From the NCBI GenBank assembly GCA_038200085.1, contig JBBPYG010000050.1, positions 1 through 60,426 of the forward strand: 60,426 nt of DNA, written 5' to 3'. This DNA comes from Candidatus Limnocylindria bacterium (GTDB lineage Bacteria > Chloroflexota > Limnocylindria > P2-11E). How positions within the stretch are numbered: position 1 is the first letter of the stretch; each line of letters starts with the position of its first letter. Under the pieces are notes generated by a model, which saw only the letters and a program-made list of their open reading frames with translations, searched no databases and was not told where the DNA came from. A program made the translations under genes and the position numbers. Positions 9,456 to 60,426 of the stretch are shown here, in pieces.

Positions 9456-10235
9456 CTAGACGCCCCTCCAGCGAGGCTTTCGCTTCTCGAGGAACGCGGT
9501 TACGCCTTCGCGGAAGTCCTCCGAGAGGTAGGCCATCTCCACAAGGTCCTCGCCCGCACCCAGGGCACTGCGGCGGGCGTCCAGCACCCGGCGCACCGCG
9601 AGCTTCGCGGTTCGGAGCGTAAGCGGAGCGTTCGCGGCGATGCGCTCCGCGAGCGCTGCCACATGCGCCTCGATGCCGGCGAGCGGCACGACTTCGTTGA
9701 AGAAGCCCAGCCGCAGGCCAGCCTCGGCGTCGACCAGATCCGCCGTGAACACGAGCTGCTTCGTGACGGCCGGCCCGAGCGCGTCGACCATCCGCGCGAA
9801 GTTGCGCAGCGACAGCGTGTTGCCGACCGTCCGCGCGATCGGCATGCCGACGCGCGCGTTGTCGGCGCCGATCCGCAGGTCGCACGCCAGCGCCAGCGCG
9901 GCACCGCCTCCGGTGACCACGCCACGCACCAGCGCGATCGCTGGTTTCGAGACGCGCTCCAGCGCGCCGATGGCGCGCTCGACGTGCGCCTCGTACGCGA
10001 GCGCGTCCTCGCGGGTGCGGATCTGACCGACGCTCCCGATGTCGCTCCCCGACACGAACGCCTGGTCGCCGCGCCCCTGCACGACGAGCACGCGCACGGC
10101 GCCGTCGCCCTCGATCTCCGCGCAAAGGTCAGCGAGGCGCGCGTACATGTCGGGCGTGAACGAGTTCCGTGCTTCGGGCCGGTCGAATGTCAGCCACGCC
10201 ACGCCGCCGCGGCGCTCGAGGTCGACCGTGCCCAT
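9456..10235 (-). CDS. Enoyl-CoA hydratase/isomerase (crotonase) family protein
   Basis: The C-terminal 260 aa of track ORF 9456..10595, from MGTVDLERRGGVAWLTFDRPEARNSF to GVVTGGGAALALACDLRIG, which are crotonase fold motifs. The ATG at 10235 lies 7 nt after the upstream gene stop. Confidence 0.85.
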   Translation of the reverse strand: MGTVDLERRGGVAWLTFDRPEARNSFTPDMYARLADLCAEIEGDGAVRVLVVQGRGDQAFVSGSDIGSVGQIRTREDALAYEAHVERAIGALERVSKPAIALVRGVVTGGGAALALACDLRIGADNARVGMPIARTVGNTLSLRNFARMVDALGPAVTKQLVFTADLVDAEAGLRLGFFNEVVPLAGIEAHVAALAERIAANAPLTLRTAKLAVRRVLDARRSALGAGEDLVEMAYLSEDFREGVTAFLEKRKPRWRGV

Positions 10236-10242
10236 GTTCACC

Positions 10243-11430
10243 TCACGCCGCCACGCCGTCGCGGAGCATCGCGTCGATCCGGTCAGCTGAAAGTCCCGCC
10301 TCGGCGAGCACCTCGCGCGTGTGTTCGCCGAGCAGCGGCGCCGCGCGGCGCAGCTCCGGTGGCGTGTCGCGCAGGCCGAGCGGCGAGCCGACCGCGCGGA
10401 CCATGCCTGCGGTCGGGTGGGGAAGGTCCACGAAGAAGCCGCGCTCCCGCAGATGGGGGTCGGCGAACACGTCGGCGAATGTGTTGACGCGCCCGCACGG
10501 CACGCCGGCGTCCTCGAGCACGCGCATCCACTCCGCCGTCGTCCGGGCGACCGTGACCTCCTCGATGATCGCAGCGAGCTCGCGGTACCGCGCACGCCGC
10601 TTCGCGACCGTCGCCCACGCCGGGTCGTCCACCAGAGACGCGAGTCCCGCCGTGCCGCAGAAGGCCTCCCACGTCGCGGGAGTGGTCGCGCCGATCGCGA
10701 CGAAACCGTCGCTGGTCCGGAACGCCTGGTACGGCGCCGCGACGCGATGCGCCGACCCGAGCGGTGCCGGCACCTCGCCCGTCTCGAGGTACACGCCCGA
10801 TTCCCAGATCCCGAGCGACACGCCGCTCTCGAGGAGCGAGATGTCGATGAGCTGGCCGCGCCCCGAGCGCTGCCGCGCGATGACGGCGCAGAGCACGGCG
10901 TACGCGCCGTACATGGCGGACGCGAGGTCCACGATGGGAACGCCTACCTTCACCGGCGGCCGCCCCTCCTCGCCTGTCACGCTCATGAGCCCGCTCTCGG
11001 CCTGCACGATGAGGTCGAGCCCGGCGCGATCGCGGTACGGGCCCGTCAGGCCGAATCCCGTGACCGAGAGGTAGATGAGCTCGGGGTGCGTCGCGGCGAG
11101 CGAGGCGTACCCAAGGCCGAGCGAGTCCATCGTACCGGCGCGCAGGTTCTCGACAACGATGTCCGCGCCCGCCGCGAGCGCGCGGAAGGCGTCGGCGCCG
11201 TCGGCGCGCTTCAGGTCGAGCGCGACGCTGCGCTTGTTGCGGTTAAGGCGGAGGAAGCCCGCGCCGTCGCTGCCGCCAGCCGGAAATGGCCCGAGGGCCC
11301 GGCTGTAGTCGCCGGAGCTGGGCAGCTCGACCTTCACCACGTCGGCGCCCATGTCCGCTAGCAGCGTCCCGGCGTACGGCCCGGCCATGAAGTTGCCGAT
11401 CTCGAGCACGCGCAGGCCTTCGAGCGTCAC
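10243..11430 (-). CDS. CoA-transferase family III (CaiB/BaiF-like)
   Basis: N-terminus LEGLRVLEIGNFMAGPYAGTLLADMGADVVKVE is the hallmark of family III CoA-transferases. The protein is 395 aa. Confidence 0.85.
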   Translation of the reverse strand: MTLEGLRVLEIGNFMAGPYAGTLLADMGADVVKVELPSSGDYSRALGPFPAGGSDGAGFLRLNRNKRSVALDLKRADGADAFRALAAGADIVVENLRAGTMDSLGLGYASLAATHPELIYLSVTGFGLTGPYRDRAGLDLIVQAESGLMSVTGEEGRPPVKVGVPIVDLASAMYGAYAVLCAVIARQRSGRGQLIDISLLESGVSLGIWESGVYLETGEVPAPLGSAHRVAAPYQAFRTSDGFVAIGATTPATWEAFCGTAGLASLVDDPAWATVAKRRARYRELAAIIEEVTVARTTAEWMRVLEDAGVPCGRVNTFADVFADPHLRERGFFVDLPHPTAGMVRAVGSPLGLRDTPPELRRAAPLLGEHTREVLAEAGLSADRIDAMLRDGVAA

Positions 11431-43056: not shown

Positions 43057-43991
43057 CGACCGCGCTCGTGTGCGGCGGGCCCCGCCTCGCCGAAGCGGCG
43101 CGCGTTCTCGGATTGGAGGAGCCGCGTGGGGACCCCGACATCGTGCTCCTCGAACTCGCTGACGGCGCGGCGGTCGAGCGCGCGTCGCTGCTGCCAGCCG
43201 GGATCCCGCGCGTCGTCGTCGCCGACCCGAAGCACCGCGAGCTGCTGCGCGCCCTCGGCCTCGCCGCGGGCGCCGTCGCGGACGCCTCCGAGGCAGCGTC
43301 CATCGGGCCCCTGATCGCGGCCCTGGTGCCGGCAGCCCGTCGCGCCGCGCGCGTCGTTCTCTGCACCGCCGCTCGCGGCGGGGTCGGACGCACGCTGCTG
43401 GCGGCCAATCTCGCGCGCCGGATAGCCGGCGGCGGCGCGTCGGTGCTCGCGCTCGACACGACCGGCACGGGGCTGCTGGCGTGGTGGTTGAGGGTGGACG
43501 GGCGGCCGTGGTCCGATTTGCACGGCCTTGCCCAGGAGCTGTCCGGCGAACACCTCGGGCTCGTCGCAAGCGATGTCGCGAAGGACCTGCGGTCATTCGG
43601 CGCCGGACCGCTCGCTCCGGTGGCGGACATCGCGGTCGCGGCGACGAAGGCCGCGCTCGACCTCGCGGACGTCGTCATCATCGACGCCGCGCCGTTGGCG
43701 GATCCGTGCACCCGGGCGCTGCAGGGCGCAGCCGACCGCACGATGGTGCTGACCTACGCCGACCCGGCATCGGTCGCGGCGCTGTCGGCCGCGGAGAGCC
43801 CAGAGGACGCGTGGCTCATCGTCTCGCAGGCGGGGACCCGGGCGATCCAGGGCCGGCCCGTGCTGCGGTCGCTCCCGCGCGATGACCGCGGGGTGGGCCG
43901 CGCGCTCACGGCCCGCGACGCGGTGACCGGCGCCCTGGGGCGCGCATACGACGCGATCGCGGAGCTCGTTCTCCTCGATGTCTCGCCGTGA
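43053..43991 (+). CDS. TadZ/CpaE-like ParA/MinD-fold protein with a degenerate Walker A
   Basis: In track ORF 42804..43991. VVLCTAARGGVGRTLLAANLA resembles KGGxGKT with both Lys replaced by Arg. VIIDAAP is present. It sits directly upstream of cpaF. Confidence 0.6.
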   Translation: MTTALVCGGPRLAEAARVLGLEEPRGDPDIVLLELADGAAVERASLLPAGIPRVVVADPKHRELLRALGLAAGAVADASEAASIGPLIAALVPAARRAARVVLCTAARGGVGRTLLAANLARRIAGGGASVLALDTTGTGLLAWWLRVDGRPWSDLHGLAQELSGEHLGLVASDVAKDLRSFGAGPLAPVADIAVAATKAALDLADVVIIDAAPLADPCTRALQGAADRTMVLTYADPASVAALSAAESPEDAWLIVSQAGTRAIQGRPVLRSLPRDDRGVGRALTARDAVTGALGRAYDAIAELVLLDVSP

Positions 43992-44265
43992 ACGCCGCGA
44001 CCCGCGCGCGTCTCGAGCAGATCGTCGTCGCACGTCTGCGTGAGGCTCCTGATGGCCGTCCCCGCCACGACCAGCTCGCCGGTGCTCTTCGCGACGGCCT
44101 GGCCGCGGAACGCGTCGTCGTTCCCTCAGGTGAGCTGCGCCAGCTCGAGCGGTGGCTTGACGATCGGCTCTTCGGACTCGGCGACCTCGCGCCGCTCCTG
44201 CGCGACGACCGCGTCAGCGAGGTGATGGTGAACGGCATGCGCGGGGTGTGGGTCGAGCGCGACGG
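43988..44265 (+). pseudogene. cpaF: cpaF/tadA (Tad secretion ATPase) 5' fragment, interrupted after codon 92 by the casposon
   Basis: Reads ...LGDLAPLLRDDRVSEVMVNGMRGVWVERDG, then runs into the TIR and a TAA at 44270-44272. The same frame resumes at 60286 ([21 protein letters not shown]...). Confidence 0.85.
44252..44265. repeat. Left copy of the 14-bp target-site duplication GTCGAGCGCGACGG
   Basis: Identical to 60286-60299. The flanking bases differ on both sides (g/c before, g/t after), so the duplication is exactly 14 bp. Confidence 0.9.
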
Positions 44266-44315
44266 GGGATAACTACTGGGCCGTCGCGAAACGCGGCAAA
44301 GTCGGACAGCGTGAA
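44266..44315. repeat. Left terminal inverted repeat
   Basis: GGGATAACTACTGGGCCGTCGCGAAACGCGGCAAAGTCGGACAGCGTGAA, compared with the reverse complement of 60235-60285. By my manual alignment about 40 of 51 columns are identical with one 1-nt gap, and the terminal 12 nt are perfect. Confidence 0.85.
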
Positions 44316-44406
44316 CGGCACGGCACGGCGCACTCCCGGGTGCAAGCCATCCATCGGGAATACTTGGCGGGCTAGACCGTCAAGTCTTCACGCTACGGAG
44401 GAAACC

Positions 44407-44616
44407 GTGCACTGGCTAAGAGAGTTCTTGAATCGGCGTCGTGTCAGTTCCGAAAGGATTGGGCTGGAAGCGACTGTTAAGACCGAGGAGCGCCTCGTGG
44501 CGGAGAGAGTTCCAACGCCGAAACAAGTCCAATTCAGAGACTCATTTACGTTCAACGAGCGAGGCGCCGCGAATCGAAGGACGACGGTCGGCGATCGACG
44601 ACCGCATATCGCATAG
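44407..44616 (+). CDS. Small hypothetical protein (69 aa)
   Basis: GTG at 44407 preceded by GGAGG (44396-44400) with a 6-nt spacer. It lies in the frame of track ORF 44248..44616, whose upstream part crosses the TIR and is not credible. Confidence 0.35.
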   Translation: MHWLREFLNRRRVSSERIGLEATVKTEERLVAERVPTPKQVQFRDSFTFNERGAANRRTTVGDRRPHIA

Positions 44617-44627
44617 CCGATTCTCAA

Positions 44628-45164
44628 GTGCCCTATTCGTCGGGTGCTGATCTGGACGCTGAGGACCGCATCACGTTCCGCCTTGAGGGCACCCCGATAC
44701 GCGGCGAGAAGGGGGCGGCCCTCGCGGCGTCGCATGTGGTCGAGCGGCTCAATGCGGAAGGTGGCCAGTGGAGTCAAATGGAGGTGACCGGGCGTGATGC
44801 AAGGCACGAGAAGGGGATCGACGTCACGTTCCAGGGTGTCGACGGAACTACGCTTGAAATACAAGTCACGGCAGCAGAGCGGGGACTATGGAAGCAGCTT
44901 CAGAACGATAACGTGGTCGAAGGTGCGATATCTATCGACTCCGCAGTCGAGGCGCTTTGGCAGGCTACTACTGAGAAGCGCACGAGATCTGATCCGCGGG
45001 TGGTCCTGGTTCTCGACGCTGCCAACATGGGACAGTTCATATTCGATCCGGTTATCCGCAGGTTTCACGAGCTGCACGGGGGCGACGCTGGAAGGGTTGG
45101 ATTCAGCCAGATCTGGCTTGCCGGTCCGACGGCGGAGCGGACCCTTCGGTTGGATGTGGAATAG
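44628..45164 (+). CDS. Hypothetical protein (178 aa)
   Basis: Protein-like composition in the less GC-rich left arm. I recognise no motif. The antisense ORF 44388..44864 was judged spurious. Confidence 0.5.
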   Translation: MPYSSGADLDAEDRITFRLEGTPIRGEKGAALAASHVVERLNAEGGQWSQMEVTGRDARHEKGIDVTFQGVDGTTLEIQVTAAERGLWKQLQNDNVVEGAISIDSAVEALWQATTEKRTRSDPRVVLVLDAANMGQFIFDPVIRRFHELHGGDAGRVGFSQIWLAGPTAERTLRLDVE

Positions 45165-45319
45165 CTTGGCTCCGCAGGCACGAACTCGCGGCAAAGTGAT
45201 CCCGGCCCTTCGGCTGGCCGTTCCGATGCTGACAGGAGCCATCGCGGGCCAAGGGCGAGCCCTCACAAAGACACGCTCCGGCTCTTAGGCGGCATGTTGA
45301 CTCCATCCTTAATGCTCCA

Positions 45320-46102
45320 TTGCTCATGACGAGCACCGTTCTCGCCAGCAGTTGGCACAAGTTCCATTGGGCGCAGATACACATGCGGGCTCTTGATGCC
45401 GCTTTAGGCCGGATCTTCGAACTGGGCGAAGACACCATCGCCATCGATACGGAGGTCAAGATTCAGGGCGACGATGCAACGGCCCTCGTGCGCATCGCCA
45501 CGCTCCCGCTGATTTCGTCCGACTGCGCGCTCATCCTCGGTGACACACTCCAGAACTTCCGCGCGGCGCTCGATCACCTTGCGTGGGATTTGGTCAAGAT
45601 CGGGACGCAACCCAACCCATTTAACCCGCAGCAGATCTACTTTCCGATGACCAAGAGCGGTAAGAGTTTCGGGCGGCTCATCAACCAGAGACTGCCGGGC
45701 GTCAACCGCGAATATCGCGCAATCGTCCGCCGGTACCAGCCGTATGGCCGCGGCAAGGCGGCGAAAGCGATTCGCTGGCTCCGGAATCTCTCGGACGCTG
45801 ACAAGCACCGCGTCATGACCCCGATGGTCGTCAACGCTTCTCATATCAACCTGACAGTCAGCAGTAATTGGACCCTCGCTGGCTTCGAGTACATCGTCAC
45901 GCGACCCCGCGCGCTTGATGTCGGCACAGAAGTCGCGCGCGCGAAATTCATTCGTAGCGGTGCCGAAGGCTGTGCCGTGAAGATGTACGGCCACCTGCCC
46001 ATCTATCCAGCGTTGACCTATGGACGCTCGCTCGACACGGTCTTGGTTTCGATTTCCGAGACGGTGCGGGAAATTCTTGTGGTCTTTGACGAAGTCCTTT
46101 AG
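45320..46102 (+). CDS. Hypothetical protein (260 aa) with an R-x4-H motif (possible HEPN-like fold)
   Basis: LQNFRAALDHLAWDL contains RAALDH (R-x4-H), and a second RN-containing stretch is WLRNLSDADKHRV. I have no firm family assignment. Confidence 0.5.
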   Translation: MLMTSTVLASSWHKFHWAQIHMRALDAALGRIFELGEDTIAIDTEVKIQGDDATALVRIATLPLISSDCALILGDTLQNFRAALDHLAWDLVKIGTQPNPFNPQQIYFPMTKSGKSFGRLINQRLPGVNREYRAIVRRYQPYGRGKAAKAIRWLRNLSDADKHRVMTPMVVNASHINLTVSSNWTLAGFEYIVTRPRALDVGTEVARAKFIRSGAEGCAVKMYGHLPIYPALTYGRSLDTVLVSISETVREILVVFDEVL

Positions 46103-46392
46103 GCCAGCGTCTCGTTGAACGCTCCGCACTTTGAGCACTTGAACACGAGTTCGACGACGTGCGAGGTCTTGATTCCTACGAGCAGGGGCGACCCGCACTT
46201 GCCGCACTCCATCGTCACGTTGCCCTGGCTGCGCATGGCCACGGTTCCCGGTCCCTCGTAGACGAGCACCGAGCGGGTCCCTGGTGCGGGTTCGGGAATC
46301 ACGGCCATCCTAACGTGACGGGTCTTGTTCATTTGCGCGGTCTTTTTCGGCACGCTTCCTCCACGGCCGTTTGCCATCGGTAACGTACTCAC
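46099..46392 (-). CDS. Small zinc-ribbon protein (97 aa)
   Basis: CGKCGSPLL...KCSKCGAFN (two CxxC pairs). It is the last gene of the minus-strand polB operon and convergent with the 260-aa gene. Confidence 0.5.
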   Translation of the reverse strand: MSTLPMANGRGGSVPKKTAQMNKTRHVRMAVIPEPAPGTRSVLVYEGPGTVAMRSQGNVTMECGKCGSPLLVGIKTSHVVELVFKCSKCGAFNETLA

Positions 46393-46568
46393 CGGGCGGT
46401 AGCCGAAGCCGAACGCCGTACGGACACGCTGCCCGAAGGAGTGCGGCGGGCCGGACGCTGATCGCCCGTCCTCGCGGGAGTGTACCGCCGTCGAACGGCA
46501 GAGTCGCCGAGGTTTAGTGTTCCGAAGGCTCGCTCCGGTGACGCTGCGCGAGCGGTAGTCGATTAGCG

Positions 46569-54994: not shown

Positions 54995-56098
54995 ATGGGA
55001 CTGCGCTTCTTTCGACGCGTCCGTGTGCTACCCGGGATGACGATCAATCTCAGCAAGTCCGGCGCGTCAATGTCCTTCGGCGTCCGTGGCGCCCACTACA
55101 CGGTTGGCCCGCGCGGCCGGCGCGTCACCGTTGGCCTCCCTGGCACAGGCTTGTACTACACACAGTCAAAGGGCAGCGGGCGAGCGGGATCACGCGCTGT
55201 GGCTTCGGGGCCAGTGATCCGACGGCAGGCGCCAGCTCCGGTGCCGATAACTCCGCCGCCCAATTCTCCGAAAATTCGACCAGAGGGTCGTCTCACCCCG
55301 GGCTTCTTCCAGCGCCTTGTCACGCCGCCGGAAGAGCAGGAGCTTGTGGCAGCATTGCGCGACCTGACTGCAGGTGACGAGGTTCACGCACTGACGCACC
55401 TTCGCGCCGCAGCCCACCTAGCGGATGGAGCATTCCTAGCTGGATTGCTCGCGCTCAAGACGGGCTCGCTGGACGAGGCCCTGGCCGACTTGCAGTTCGC
55501 GCTCGATCACGTCGACAGGCTGGGCCGTGGATTGGAGCGCTATGGGGTCAAGGCGACAGTAAGCCTGCGAATCGCCGAGGGGCTCACGGCGCATTTGCCG
55601 CCCAGCGAAGAAGGTGTACTGCTCGGCCTCGTGGAGGTTTATGAACGCCTGCAACGCTCAGCGGATGCGCGCGACTGCCTGACGAAGCTGCAAACGCGAT
55701 GGCCGGATGATCCGGTCGTGTTGGCCTCCCGGGCGGAGCTGCGACTAGAGGCGGGTGATCGAACGGCTGCTCAGGAGGTCGTAACTATGACCAACGGCGT
55801 TTCGAACTCCACGCCTGTGCATACGGTCGTCTTGCTTTACCGCGCGCGGGCCTTGCGTCTGCTCGGTTTGCCCGATGCCTGCGTCGAAACCACGTCAAAG
55901 GCACTAACGCAGCCCAAGGACAGATCGGACGAACTCCAGCGCGAGCTTCGCTATGAGCGTGCGCTCGCCTATGGCGAGATGGGCGATGCGCGCCGAGCGC
56001 GGACCGAGCTCGAGCGGATTTACGCGGACGACTCGACCTTCGCTGACGTGGCGCGCCGCCTTGGCGTCCCGTCGGGTCAGACAGCGTCCAGCAGCTAG
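54995..56098 (+). CDS. DUF4236-domain protein with TPR-like C-terminal region
   Basis: N-terminus MGLRFFRRVRVLPGMTINLSKSGASMSFGVRGAHYTVGPRGRRVTVGLPGTGLYY matches the DUF4236 pattern. The C-terminal half is helical-repeat-like. Confidence 0.65.
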   Translation: MGLRFFRRVRVLPGMTINLSKSGASMSFGVRGAHYTVGPRGRRVTVGLPGTGLYYTQSKGSGRAGSRAVASGPVIRRQAPAPVPITPPPNSPKIRPEGRLTPGFFQRLVTPPEEQELVAALRDLTAGDEVHALTHLRAAAHLADGAFLAGLLALKTGSLDEALADLQFALDHVDRLGRGLERYGVKATVSLRIAEGLTAHLPPSEEGVLLGLVEVYERLQRSADARDCLTKLQTRWPDDPVVLASRAELRLEAGDRTAAQEVVTMTNGVSNSTPVHTVVLLYRARALRLLGLPDACVETTSKALTQPKDRSDELQRELRYERALAYGEMGDARRARTELERIYADDSTFADVARRLGVPSGQTASSS

Positions 56099-56101
56099 TG
56101 A

Positions 56102-57190
<1,089 letters not shown>

Positions 57191-57241
57191 CTCGAACCAA
57201 TAACGTCACGAGAACGCCGAGCGTTACTTCGGTATTTTCAC

Positions 57242-58054
57242 CTACGAACCGCCACGCTGATGGGCCCACATATCAATTCGCTCCTCCAATCGCTCCAGCC
57301 GTTCGAGGACGGCGTCAAGCCGCTCACTTGACGGATCAACATGACGTTGAGCACGAACGAAGATGGACGCGACCGCGGCAGTGATCAGCGAAAGAAAGGC
57401 GAGTCCGCACAGGGCCACGATCAGCTCAAGGGCGTGCGCCTCCGCAGTGCGGAGCGCCACGCCGCCGTCCCCCATGGCCGTCGCTCGTGCGGTCGCCCAC
57501 CAAAGTGCCGCGCCTGCACTCGGCACCGACTCCGGCTCGATTGCGCGCACGGCCGCGGCTGCTGCGACGACGATGACCGTCATGACGATGCCCGCAGGTC
57601 CGACGATCGAGGCCCGCTTGAACGCTCTGGCCTGGCGGTGCAAGCGTCGTCCCGCGAGGGCCAGTCGGAGGATTCGAAGCGTTCGCAGAACCCGGAGGGC
57701 CTGCCACGCCGCCGGGGCCATCGGCGGCGTCGCGACAACGAGCAAGATGTCGAAGGCGTAGTCGCGAAAGAAACTCCGTCGCGGCCGGAGCGCGAAAATT
57801 CCGATGAGACAAAAGGCGAATCCCAACCAAATGAACCAGTCGAGATATTCAGTCAGCGAGAGCAATGGCGAGTCATCGGCGAGTGCCTCTTCCAGCACGA
57901 TCGTTGGCACAACGAGCAGGGCGAGGGCGGTCATCGCAACGTCAAAACGGGCAATGCCACGAGCATGTTCACCTCCGCTCATTTCGTCGGTTGAATCGGT
58001 CCGCCGCGCAGTGCGCCTGCCCGATGTGATGCGAGCGTCGTCGCCGGCGGTCAT
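57242..58054 (-). CDS. Voltage-gated-type cation channel homolog with a non-canonical pore signature
   Basis: S4-like RVLRTLRILRLALAGRR. The pore region is ALWWATARATAMGDGGV, where K+ channels have TxGYGD. A C-terminal coiled-coil LERLERLEERI is present. Confidence 0.65.
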   Translation of the reverse strand: MTAGDDARITSGRRTARRTDSTDEMSGGEHARGIARFDVAMTALALLVVPTIVLEEALADDSPLLSLTEYLDWFIWLGFAFCLIGIFALRPRRSFFRDYAFDILLVVATPPMAPAAWQALRVLRTLRILRLALAGRRLHRQARAFKRASIVGPAGIVMTVIVVAAAAAVRAIEPESVPSAGAALWWATARATAMGDGGVALRTAEAHALELIVALCGLAFLSLITAAVASIFVRAQRHVDPSSERLDAVLERLERLEERIDMWAHQRGGS

Positions 58055-58294
58055 GCGTCGTTCACCCGGCTGGAAACACGGGCGCCATGGTGTTCGAAAA
58101 CCGCAGCGCGATCATCTCGGACCTCAGGCACTGCTGCGAGCGGCCGCGAGTACAGGCGTACAACGGACGGAACCGCTCCGGACACCTCTAGTGCCGCTCT
58201 TCTGGCGTCCGTGCCAAAGAAACAGCGACGGACCGTGGGTCACTGCTGAGTTCCGAAGCGGCGCCCTTGTGTGCCGAGATCACTCGATCGCGGA

Positions 58295-59734
58295 CTAATG
58301 GGCGTAGAGGGGCCGAAAGACGCCAGCGTGGTAGGAGCAGGCTCCACTTCGTCCGCCCGATAGGCTAAATGCTGTGTCCTGGCACTCTACTACGTAGCCA
58401 ACTCCGTTCCCGAAGCTCGGGATGCAGTTGAAGTAGGAGCAGAAGCCTAATGGCGGGGCGTAGATCAATGTCCCCGCGCAGAAGTTGTATCCCCAAGGGT
58501 TCGCCGGTGCCGTCTGGCAATCGTTCGTCACCGGCGGAGCCGGAGGCGGCGGAGGAGCGGGCGGAGGTGGAAGAGCAGCGGCCGGTGGCGGGATCGGTGG
58601 TGCTGTCCCGTCCGGATTGAGGACCGTGACGAGCCAGAAGACGCCGTAGTCCTCGAGCCACTGCGCTCCCTCGATCAAGGGACGGATGTAGAGGCGGTAG
58701 TAGCCGGGTACGGAGGGCGCCTGGACGGTGAACTGGAACCAGGCGATCTGTCCGGGTCCCACGTAGAAGGTGGGCTGTATCGCGACCCGGTTGTAGCGGG
58801 GCCACCCAGTGTTCGGCGACCCGAGCGCCCCGTCGCCGCCGAGCAGGCTAGGCCGGTCCTGTCCAGGGCTGGGGTTCCATGTGCCGAGGTAGGCGACCTC
58901 CCCGATGCGGCCGTTCACCCAGCCGAACGACCCGGAGTTGTAGTACGCGACCACGGCTCCGGACTGCGCGCCGGGACAGAGCGTCGGATACCCGGACTGG
59001 CCGTACCAAGCGGCGTGGAAGCCCGGAATGCCGGCGAGCGGCTGGGCCGGAGGCGGAATGCCCGGGCCGACACTACCGGTACACGTCGCGGCGGGAGCTG
59101 TTCCGAAAGCGATGTCGAGCAGCGGATGGAGCTCGATTCCGTTCGGCGCCACGCCGGTCTGGCCGTGAAGGAAGTCGAAGAAGCCGACGCCGCGGACGGT
59201 CACTTGCATGTTCGCGCTCTGGAAGGTCGTCGTCGCGCGCAGGACCGCGTCGAACTCGCGCCGGGCGTTGGCGATTCCGGCCAGCAGCGGATCGGTGGAC
59301 GGTACGCACGCCGGGTTGGCGATCTCGGTGATCATCGTCCGGCCAACGGAGTCGGCGATTACGAGGTGGTAGTCGGAATCGTCTTCGAGCTTGTACAGCG
59401 TCAGCGTCGCCGTGATCGAGTAGACGGTCGTTTCGGTCGGGGCGATCCGGTTGTTCGACGGCAGGAACGCTGGCTTGGGGAGACTCGTGAGATAACCGAT
59501 CGTCGTCGGCGTGGTGCTGGAGAGGTTGACTAGACCAACGTCCGCGTCGGTGCCGATCTTCACCGCCTCGCGCTCGATGCCGCAGGTGACCGCAGCGGCC
59601 GGGCTGTTAGCGCCGAAACCTGTGTACGACGCGAGCAGCCCTATAACCATCAGGAACGTCATGGCCGCTCGTAACCCGCGTCGCGTTGTGGGCTGGAGAT
59701 CCACCAATAGATCCTCCTCGCTAGCTCGTCTCAC
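58295..59734 (-). CDS. Secreted multi-domain protein with Pro-rich linker and DUF3761-like Cys-rich C-terminus
   Basis: N-terminal TM/signal (AAMTFLMVIGLLAS), a PPIPPPAAALPPPPAPPPPPAPP linker, and a C-terminal GYVVECQDTAFSLSGGRSGACSYHAGV resembling the DUF3761 pattern. Confidence 0.55.
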   Translation of the reverse strand: MRRASEEDLLVDLQPTTRRGLRAAMTFLMVIGLLASYTGFGANSPAAAVTCGIEREAVKIGTDADVGLVNLSSTTPTTIGYLTSLPKPAFLPSNNRIAPTETTVYSITATLTLYKLEDDSDYHLVIADSVGRTMITEIANPACVPSTDPLLAGIANARREFDAVLRATTTFQSANMQVTVRGVGFFDFLHGQTGVAPNGIELHPLLDIAFGTAPAATCTGSVGPGIPPPAQPLAGIPGFHAAWYGQSGYPTLCPGAQSGAVVAYYNSGSFGWVNGRIGEVAYLGTWNPSPGQDRPSLLGGDGALGSPNTGWPRYNRVAIQPTFYVGPGQIAWFQFTVQAPSVPGYYRLYIRPLIEGAQWLEDYGVFWLVTVLNPDGTAPPIPPPAAALPPPPAPPPPPAPPVTNDCQTAPANPWGYNFCAGTLIYAPPLGFCSYFNCIPSFGNGVGYVVECQDTAFSLSGGRSGACSYHAGVFRPLYAH

Positions 59735-59980
59735 GCGCTGACGACTTCGCCTCGCACTAAATGTGCCCCGGCCCGCTTCAGCGCTTGGGCGTCAGTGCCG
59801 CGATGGGGCTTGGGCGACCGAAGCAACATATCGTCATCTCGCTTGTCGCGGTCAGGCCCGCGAGAACGAAGCGACGGCAAACCCAAGCCTCGCTCGGTGA
59901 GGGCCATACCGAGGTAGGGTGAGCGACTTCGCAGCGGAGGCCAGCCGGGACCCCTGTTGACAGAAATGCGAGCCCCCACC

Positions 59981-60195
59981 GTCGAGCGGGACAGTCGCCT
60001 CGAAGAGACCGGCATCCGGTTCACCGATCCGGAACAGATCCTCGTCCTCATCGAGCGGCTCGCCGCTCGGCCGGCGCATCGACCTCGCAACGCCGATCGT
60101 CGACGCGCGCCTCCCCGACGGCTCCCGCGTCCACGCGGTCATCCCGCCGATCTCGCTGCTCGGGCCGGTCCTCACGATCCGCCGCTTCGCGGGCC
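59981..60195 (+). pseudogene. Internal cpaF-like fragment (codons equivalent to about 89-160), frameshifted, just inside the right TIR
   Basis: Starts with GTCGAGCGGGACAG (12/14 identical to the TSD) and reads [28 protein letters not shown] 5-nt deletion relative to the host copy falls near 60061. In the shifted frame it continues [45 protein letters not shown]. By my count it has 11 mismatches in 136 nt against 60286-60426. Confidence 0.8.
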
Positions 60196-60234
60196 CGATG
60201 GAGGCGTCAGCGCCAGTTCGCCGCGCCGCGTCGC

Positions 60235-60285
60235 TTTCACGGTGTCCGACCTCTTGGCGTTTGCCGACGGCTTAGTAGTTATCCC
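60235..60285. repeat. Right terminal inverted repeat
   Basis: ...TTCACGGGTGTCCGACCTCTTGGCGTTTGCCGACGGCTTAGTAGTTATCCC is the inverted match of 44266-44315. Confidence 0.85.
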
Positions 60286-60299
60286 GTCGAGCGCGACGG
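60286..60299. repeat. Right copy of the 14-bp target-site duplication GTCGAGCGCGACGG
   Basis: Identical to 44252-44265 and directly abuts the TIR terminus. Confidence 0.9.
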
Positions 60300-60426
60300 T
60301 CGCCTGGAAGAGACGGGCATCCGGTTCACCGATCCGGAACAGATACTCGTGCTCATCGAGCGACTCGTCGCGCCGCTCGGCCGGCGCATCGACCTCGCGA
60401 CGCCGCTCGTCGATGCGCGCCTTCCC
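60286..60426 (+). pseudogene. cpaF: cpaF/tadA 3' portion resuming after the casposon (runs off the window end)
   Basis: [47 protein letters not shown] is open to the window end. It is in frame with 43988-44265 once the element and one TSD copy are removed. Confidence 0.8.

Follow-up and report, generated by a model that had tools for sequence, protein, structure and literature searches.

Why a mobile element should carry, just inside one of its ends, a diverged piece of the very gene that it interrupts is the question raised by this locus. The window (the whole stretch of DNA that was analysed, 60,426 nt, which is also the whole contig) contains a cpaF gene that is split by an element bounded by terminal inverted repeats (TIR-L and TIR-R) and by two copies of a target-site duplication (TSD):

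43988..44265, + strand: codons 1-93 of the host cpaF (tad pilus ATPase), its 5' part, with the left TSD at the end (identity to P0242)
44252..44265, + strand: left TSD copy, GTCGAGCGCGACGG, 14 bp (identical to 60286-60299; single-copy in L217)
44266..44358, + strand: TIR-L, which begins GGGATAACTACT (inverted-repeat alignment)
60194..60285, + strand: TIR-R, which ends AGTAGTTATCCC (inverted-repeat alignment)
60286..60299, + strand: right TSD copy, GTCGAGCGCGACGG (alignment to the L217 empty site)
60286..60426, + strand: host cpaF restarting at codon 89 and cut by the contig end (L217 alignment)

An empty site is found in L217, a near-identical genome that holds a single copy of GTCGAGCGCGACGG at L217 10265-10278. 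It was reached by clustering the cut-off 94-aa N-terminal ORF of the host, which led to the 370-aa CpaF P0242. The window and L217 are 96.0% identical over 10.3 kb, with the alignment breaking at 44265 and restarting at 60286. No difference from L217 occurs in the final 200 nt of the left flank (100% identity), and the right flank (60286-60426), the 141 nt that remain from the start of the right TSD to the end of the contig, is 97.2% identical to L217 10265-10405. This empty site proves that 16,020 bp (44266-60285) were inserted with a 14-bp TSD. Because both flanks are host-type up to the junctions, the element came by transposition and not by homologous import, and import of the whole locus from a donor is ruled out. 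The insertion point lies after codon 93 of the 370-aa CpaF (L217 cpaF at 10001-11113) in the tad locus; the host 94-aa ORF ends in ...VWVERDGG*, its initial 93 aa are those of L217 P0242, and its stop falls in TIR-L. CpaF relatives match PF00437 (T2SSE) and the source annotation names CpaF.

Some further features of this region are worth recording. The contig stops inside a segment that is repeated at 59981-60116, which is typical of an assembler break at a repeat or at coexisting filled and empty sites. A 465-aa CpaF paralog lies in a second tad locus of L217 (19541-20938), 8.5 kb downstream, and might compensate for the loss. In L011 (4440-5589; GCA_038211425.1), cpaF homology is lost after about codon 234 and is followed by a serine recombinase (PF00239/PF07508), so that a different mobile element seems to interrupt the same gene elsewhere.

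From its Cas1, its putative homologue of family B DNA polymerases (PolB), its TIRs and its 14-bp TSD, the element at 44266-60285 is a casposon. Its annotated genes are the following:

46569..49770, - strand: putative family B DNA polymerase gene (polB) in two ORFs, 48781-49770 and 46569-48788 (tblastn)
51680..53212, + strand: casposase, a Cas1 homologue of 510 aa (PF01867, E = 2e-34)
54995-56098: DUF4236-TPR protein, casposon cargo
56102-57190: Pro/Thr-rich secreted protein, casposon cargo
57242-58054: ion-transport family membrane protein, casposon cargo
58295-59734: 479-aa secreted protein, casposon cargo

The best solved structure for the casposase is 6OPM (E = 4e-21), the structure of the Methanosarcina mazei casposase (PMC6977970). 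Cysteines C371, C374, C386 and C389 are invariant across 39 relatives, and a helix-turn-helix (HTH) at the C-terminus gives a weak HTH_3 match (residues 466-505, E = 0.005). This layout of Cas1 with four cysteines and an HTH agrees with the description of the Family 3 element NitAL212-C1, whose Cas1 is joined to a zinc-binding module and an HTH (PMC4046053). Relatives of the casposase were found in metagenome-assembled genomes (MAGs) of Chloroflexota, Acidobacteriota, Actinomycetota and Gemmatimonadota. The element resembles known casposons (Family 3, M. mazei and A. boonei; PMC4046053, PMC4779613, PMC6977970) in combining a Cas1 casposase with a putative PolB homologue, and differs from them in that its polB is split. 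Single ORFs of 1020-1069 aa from L010 and L013, which adjoin Cas1 there, align with the window over ~950 aa and cover both polB ORFs in frames -1 and -2 (E 1e-88 to 1e-155), and the L013 homologue is barely over the PF03175 (DNA_pol_B_2) threshold, at 26.8 vs 25.8 bits; the window polB ORFs themselves gave no Pfam or PDB match. These ORFs, of 329 aa and 739 aa, overlap by 8 nt with a frame switch near 48785-48810, and the split reflects either a frameshift that inactivates the gene or an error in sequencing. The HNH endonuclease gene typical of Family 3 was not confirmed: the 174-aa ORF beside polB (49767-50291) shows Cys/His motifs by eye and no Pfam HNH match even at E = 1. The cargo of the right arm (54995-59734) is not related to transposition and has a GC content of 61-69%, compared with 72-77% in the host.

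TIRs with a TSD of about 14-15 bp are a casposon hallmark and are present here, with the TSD verified against L217. TIR-L and TIR-R are perfect over the outermost 12 nt (GGGATAACTACT) and 77% identical over 57 nt without gaps. The TIRs extend beyond these 57 nt: once small indels are allowed, similarity of ~75% reaches ~92-93 nt (44266-44358 and 60194-60285). As in the M. mazei casposon, the TIRs are imperfect and end in ...TATCCC-3', and the 14-bp TSD is quasi-palindromic. The terminus (44266-44273 and 60278-60285) equals the M. mazei casposon end in 6OPM (5'-TATATCCC), and the TSD core GTCGAGCGCGAC (44252-44263) is a palindrome at 10/12 positions, the M. mazei target likewise being palindromic.

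Between the casposon interior and TIR-R lies the piece of cpaF, hereafter cpaF':

59981..60191, + strand: cpaF' fragment of 211 nt, equivalent to codons 89-160, gene nt 265-480 (alignments to the host flank, L217, L011 and L218)
59981..59994, + strand: diverged internal TSD copy GTCGAGCGGGACAG, the opening 14 nt of cpaF' (12/14 vs GTCGAGCGCGACGG)
60192..60193, + strand: orphan bases GG between cpaF' and TIR-R (outside both the cpaF homology and the TIR similarity)

Local alignment of 59979-60116 with 60284-60426 covers 138 positions with 11 mismatches and one 5-nt deletion (blastn E 2e-45), the deletion sitting in the internal copy near 60060/60061. Since the host right flank is only 141 nt long, the full extent of cpaF' was measured on the uninterrupted cpaF of L217, in which 59981-60191 aligns with L217 10265-10480 (216 gene nt, 15 mismatches, 1 gap). 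Sequence specific to cpaF' is exemplified by the 31-mer GTCGAGCGGGACAGTCGCCTCGAAGAGACCG. The homology rests on this long alignment because the TSD-like 14-mer is not significant by itself: the window holds 20 matches to it at ≤2 mismatches vs ~10 expected.

These data agree with most of what had been read from the letters alone. The 12/14 match of the start at 59981 to the TSD (GTCGAGCGGGACAG vs GTCGAGCGCGACGG) was recovered, as was the identity of ~92% over 136 nt with 11 mismatches, which becomes 125/136 or 91.9% when two shared CC bases are left out. Alignment and translation confirmed that the 5-nt deletion breaks the frame, the 216 gene nt aligned in L217 bear out the claim of at least 215 nt of host-like sequence, and the blastn E value together with the L217 alignment makes the fragment more cpaF-like than random GC-rich sequence. 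What had to be revised is the right edge, which had been placed ~40 nt before the right TIR and is actually 2 nt from it (GG, 60192-60193), because the TIR is ~92 nt long.

Both edges of the fragment are sharp. On the left, cpaF' begins at the exact first base of the TSD with the polarity of a right junction, and there is no similarity to the host upstream flank at positions -1 to -6 from 59981. That nothing TIR-like or cpaF-like lies left of 59981 had also been claimed, and local alignment against shuffled sequences upholds it: the scores of this DNA against either TIR were equalled by 26/500 and 105/500 shuffles, so that no degenerate TIR was detected there. The window holds no third copy of the TIR terminus, and no inverted partner for the DNA left of 59981 was found anywhere in it. 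On the right, cpaF' adjoins the inner end of TIR-R.

The differences between cpaF' and its relatives tell where the fragment may have come from. Over the same 136 columns, cpaF' matches the host at 91.9% of positions and L217 at 91.2%, the host and L217 themselves being 97.2% identical to one another; identity is 86-88% to L011 and L218 (87.5% each over 136 columns) and 71% to the paralog. In the comparison with the host, nine changes are synonymous and two non-synonymous, and 9/11 affect the third base of a codon (P = 3e-4 to 1e-3). Chance substitutions here are expected to be synonymous in 28% of cases, for which 9/11 gives P = 3e-4. Of its 29 differences from L011, 26 are third-position changes. 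No more than two amino-acid replacements, G to S and L to I, are unique to cpaF', and at CTC, ACC and CGG codons it has states common to L011 and L218 that are absent from the host and L217. Because synonymous differences dominate, cpaF' diverged under purifying selection within a working gene. Neutral decay since capture has been slight, amounting to roughly one deletion plus, perhaps, two or three substitutions. By its alignments, cpaF' thus represents a separate, unsampled lineage near the host species; it lies outside the host/L217 pair, with that pair rather than L011 or L218 as its nearest neighbour.

The sequence-only reading had proposed an earlier integration into a related cpaF, and this is supported by the TSD-exact start, the polarity, the 9:2 synonymous bias and the identities. 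It had further suggested that the donor lineage might be recognised by alignment to related cpaF genes. The donor allele was not found among L011, L218 and L217, all of which are further from cpaF' than the host is, or about as far. A protein search with the frame-corrected cpaF' gave short, distant fragments only and no CpaF with both S and I.

Site-specific targeting of cpaF, likewise proposed, is borne out by the empty site and by three more diverged casposons at the same nucleotide. The three truncated CpaF N-termini found besides that of the window end at the same residue, ...VW[VI]ER[DE]GG. At the left junctions of the window, L129, L130 and L012, cpaF reads ...GAGCG(C)GA(C/G)GG and is followed by a TIR starting with GGG, the start being GGGATA in 3/4 of the cpaF-inserted elements, the window included. 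The L012/L013 element comes with a PolB and with a Cas1 that shares only ~51% identity with that of the window. Four diverged casposons in four hosts are hereby shown to use the same cpaF nucleotide, and the cpaF' relic implies a fifth integration event at it. More distant family members, with a Cas1 of 36-46% identity, are not in cpaF.

Sibling copies of the element were not found in the searched collections, the nearest Cas1 among 5.8 billion proteins being 58% identical, and exact look-ups of two window proteins and a 29-nt exact scan of genome contigs gave no match. We also looked for right junctions of other cpaF-targeting casposons. Two degenerate patterns gave 0 and 86 chance matches in genome contigs, none of the 86 with CpaF or Cas1; a metagenome scan gave a single chance match, and viral contigs nothing relevant. 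L013 and L014 do not extend to the right end in cpaF.

A family survey was carried out in which the TIR pairs of 27 other elements were located and 300 nt of each flank were compared with the element's own interior. An internal flank copy was present in 0/27, which makes the window the sole positive among 28. In 3/27 surveyed elements an extra TIR lies just outside, indicating tandem insertion. Tandem casposons or decayed remnants, with TSD copies of 12-14 nt between them, occur in distant family members, as in Methanosarcina, and L027 has a third TIR copy 2.7 kb past its right end. The sites are the following:

L032, 500-600, 3443-3500 and 16440-16500: decayed remnant between TSD copies
L085, 16752-16841: family tandem or remnant site
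L074, 14024-14072: family tandem or remnant site
L053, 13745-13830: family tandem or remnant site

We also noticed a set of 75-110-aa ORFs (P0244-P0250 and P0221) that contain CpaF codons ~90-165 only or lose homology after TIR(R/K)F. They sit on 16-466 kb contigs of other taxa, in a match list that over-represents short proteins, and may represent pseudogenes, further cases of interrupted cpaF or counterparts of the relic.

The reading that we favour, and regard as probable, is that cpaF' is a passenger relic, left by a previous integration at this nucleotide in a related host and later carried along with the element; cpaF' itself is most likely a functionless passenger. An ancestor casposon would have sat at the same cpaF nucleotide in a different but related bacterium, where a rearrangement would have put ~216 bp of the right flank, from the TSD on, between the interior and a right TIR. 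Thus enlarged, the element (TIR-L, interior, flank piece, TIR-R) would then have entered the present cpaF by ordinary casposase integration, with the new 14-bp TSD formed at this step, and the captured piece would have gained the 5-nt frameshift deletion and perhaps two amino-acid-changing substitutions afterwards. This scenario, which rests on a single instance, starts from what is observed, namely the insertion with its TSD, the use of the site by four casposons, the foreign and selection-shaped copy and its exact boundaries, and adds an order of events and a rearrangement that we infer.

The two joints of cpaF' constrain the route of its capture. The joint 59980|59981 has the geometry of a casposase right junction, with a 3' end joined directly 5' of the TSD, while the DNA left of 59981 has only the terminal CC in common with the real element end. 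At 60191-60194 the flank is fused to the inner edge of TIR-R, and no transposition reaction gives such a product. The use of an alternative right end or recombination between copies, which the sequence-only reading had offered as sources, is reasonable as a general idea and unproven; their simple versions fail, since they predict a TIR left of 59981. This applies alike to simple read-through to an alternative end, to tandem duplication of the right junction and to aberrant circle formation from the TSD to a downstream motif, each of which predicts TIR-R left of the internal TSD, where there is none. With no TIR left of 59981, two or more non-standard steps are needed for the capture. Also rejected was a complete second insertion at the +215 motif described below, because it would put an outer TIR end and a second TSD beside cpaF', where the inner edge of TIR-R lies. 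Regeneration of TIR-R by fold-back from TIR-L does not fit either, the ~25% divergence of the TIRs being far above the decay of cpaF': TIR-R is 75-77% identical to TIR-L and cpaF' is barely decayed, so TIR-R was not copied from TIR-L after capture. Judged by sequence, TIR-R is an old right TIR, ~25% diverged from TIR-L.

A possible clue to the second joint is a short motif. GTCGA[GC]CGC, the initial 9 nt of the TSD, occurs in L217 cpaF only at nt 265 and nt 480 (L217 10480), with a background frequency of 2-3e-4 per nt. The captured piece spans gene nt 265-480, precisely from motif to motif, the second lying 215 nt downstream; this coincidence is post hoc and holds for the L217 allele only, L011 and L218 being without the motif. 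Its presence at both ends of cpaF' suggests that a right TIR may have been joined 5' of a second target-like site in the donor while the original TIR was lost. As a low-confidence guess, the original TIR-R would have been cut out or lost and a right TIR re-joined 5' of the second motif GTCGACCGC, either through half-site integration of a TIR fragment by the casposase or through illegitimate recombination involving another copy. A stricter version, which we think unlikely, is that the casposase made both joints, a TIR-R of ~92-95 nt being excised and re-integrated by a half-site reaction 5' of GTCGACCGC, which would explain why the captured piece runs precisely from motif to motif. If this were true, three direct 14-bp target copies (44252, 59981 and 60286) would be separated by inserts, and the locus would hold a natural in vivo trace of a casposase inserting short DNA at a repeat-like site, the kind of event proposed as a link between casposon transposition and CRISPR spacer acquisition.

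Other origins of cpaF' were weighed against the passenger relic. It might be a functional internal target copy, for instance a decoy or immunity site for the casposase, a place for tandem copies to land or a homology arm with cpaF, which we consider very unlikely. Its TSD-exact start, its position directly against a casposase-binding TIR and its good preservation but for one deletion would suit such a role, as would the common tandem insertion at regenerated targets in this family and the recognition by casposases of the TSD together with adjacent sequence (PMC9939771). Yet the copy is frameshifted and unique among 28 elements with recognisable TIR pairs, the internal site carries no insertion and no extra TIR, and no promoter, terminator or Rfam family was detected in 59000-60426. 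The A. boonei and M. mazei casposases require an upstream leader-like sequence for site-specific integration (PMC9939771; PMC6977970), and cpaF' lacks the cpaF sequence upstream of the TSD that the studied archaeal systems would need (PMC6977970), although the determinant flank of this family may differ. A 211-nt direct repeat of 92% identity around TIR-R would moreover favour deletion of the TIR, a cost to the element, whereas recent capture explains the preservation and past life in a gene the synonymous bias. The functional target mimic that the sequence-only reading had kept in view thus found no support and stays a formal possibility of low probability.

An assembly artefact, in which reads of two strains (the host allele and a 92% allele) were stitched into a false duplication, is highly improbable in our view. 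The contig is of the MAG type from a metagenome and ends 141 nt into the repeated segment, and related lineages with different cpaF alleles do occur in public data. Against this, two false joints would be required (59980|59981 and 60191|60194), with at most 2 nt in common at the first and no shared k-mer at the second; a collapsed duplicate would be identical and would show neither the 8% divergence nor the indel. The left joint coincides exactly with the TSD boundary, for which a graph error would need real junction reads, and a real strain junction would show TIR-R before the TSD, where it is absent. The least probable reading is that cpaF' arose by in-situ duplication or by gene conversion from a cpaF paralog of the same genome and then decayed, with no earlier host involved. 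Related genomes do carry a second tad locus with a CpaF paralog (L217 19541-20938), but this paralog is only 71% identical to cpaF', neutral drift expects ~28% synonymous changes against the 9/11 seen (P = 3e-4), and the states common with L011/L218 and absent in the host and L217 put cpaF' on its own branch. We therefore rejected both the in-situ duplicate of the host gene and paralog conversion.

TSDs of 14-15 bp, site specificity, tandem arrays and solo TIRs have already been described for casposons (PMC4046053, PMC4779613). cpaF' is set in a lineage that resembles site-specific casposons in having strictly one target and relatives with tandem arrays and TIR remnants. Described casposons are found in intergenic DNA or at the 3' end of a tRNA or aEF-2 gene, and the target gene is spared (PMC4046053); in contrast, the window element inserts within the protein-coding cpaF at codon 93/370 and destroys the gene. 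The solo TIRs and arrays of Methanosarcina (PMC4779613) are similar in their repeated use of a target and in later rearrangements that separate TIRs, the remnant in L032 being comparable; unlike here, the TSD alone lies between copies in those arrays, with no target flank between interior and TIR. In the full-text literature, we found no described casposon with a piece of a former target inside its TIR and no paper tying casposons to cpaF or to pili.

Outside the casposons, flanking DNA is transduced through an alternative downstream end by ISEcp1, by one-ended transposition of the IS91 type and in L1 3' transduction. In these systems the captured DNA is preceded by the retained original end, and the new end resembles it by chance. 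Such flank transduction via an alternative end would be the nearest analogy for cpaF': DNA of the former right junction is carried inside, from the exact old junction to the end in use. In contrast to those systems, the window has no original right TIR, and the end in use is the genuine, diverged TIR-R. In some integrative elements, attP holds the 3' end of the target gene and restores the gene at integration. cpaF' is like these in being a partial copy of the target gene bounded by a recombination site and unlike them in lying on the wrong side to stand in for the displaced 3' part, in comprising only codons 89-160 with a frameshift, in having no fusion to the 5' part, and in that cpaF is not restored.

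To our knowledge, bacterial casposons have hardly been characterised, and casposase biochemistry is based entirely on three enzymes from archaea. The present data describe one bacterial casposon lineage with a nucleotide-exact target, an empty-site control and four independent insertions at one position, and they point to a well-defined target for a bacterial casposase. This cpaF-targeting lineage disrupts a pilus ATPase gene, unlike described casposons. The data also attest directly to movement of the lineage between hosts with cpaF alleles ~8% apart, always into the same site. cpaF' is probably functionless. It is a rare fossil trace of a previous hop and of irregular end processing, and its value lies not in a new mechanism but in its record of casposon mobility between hosts.
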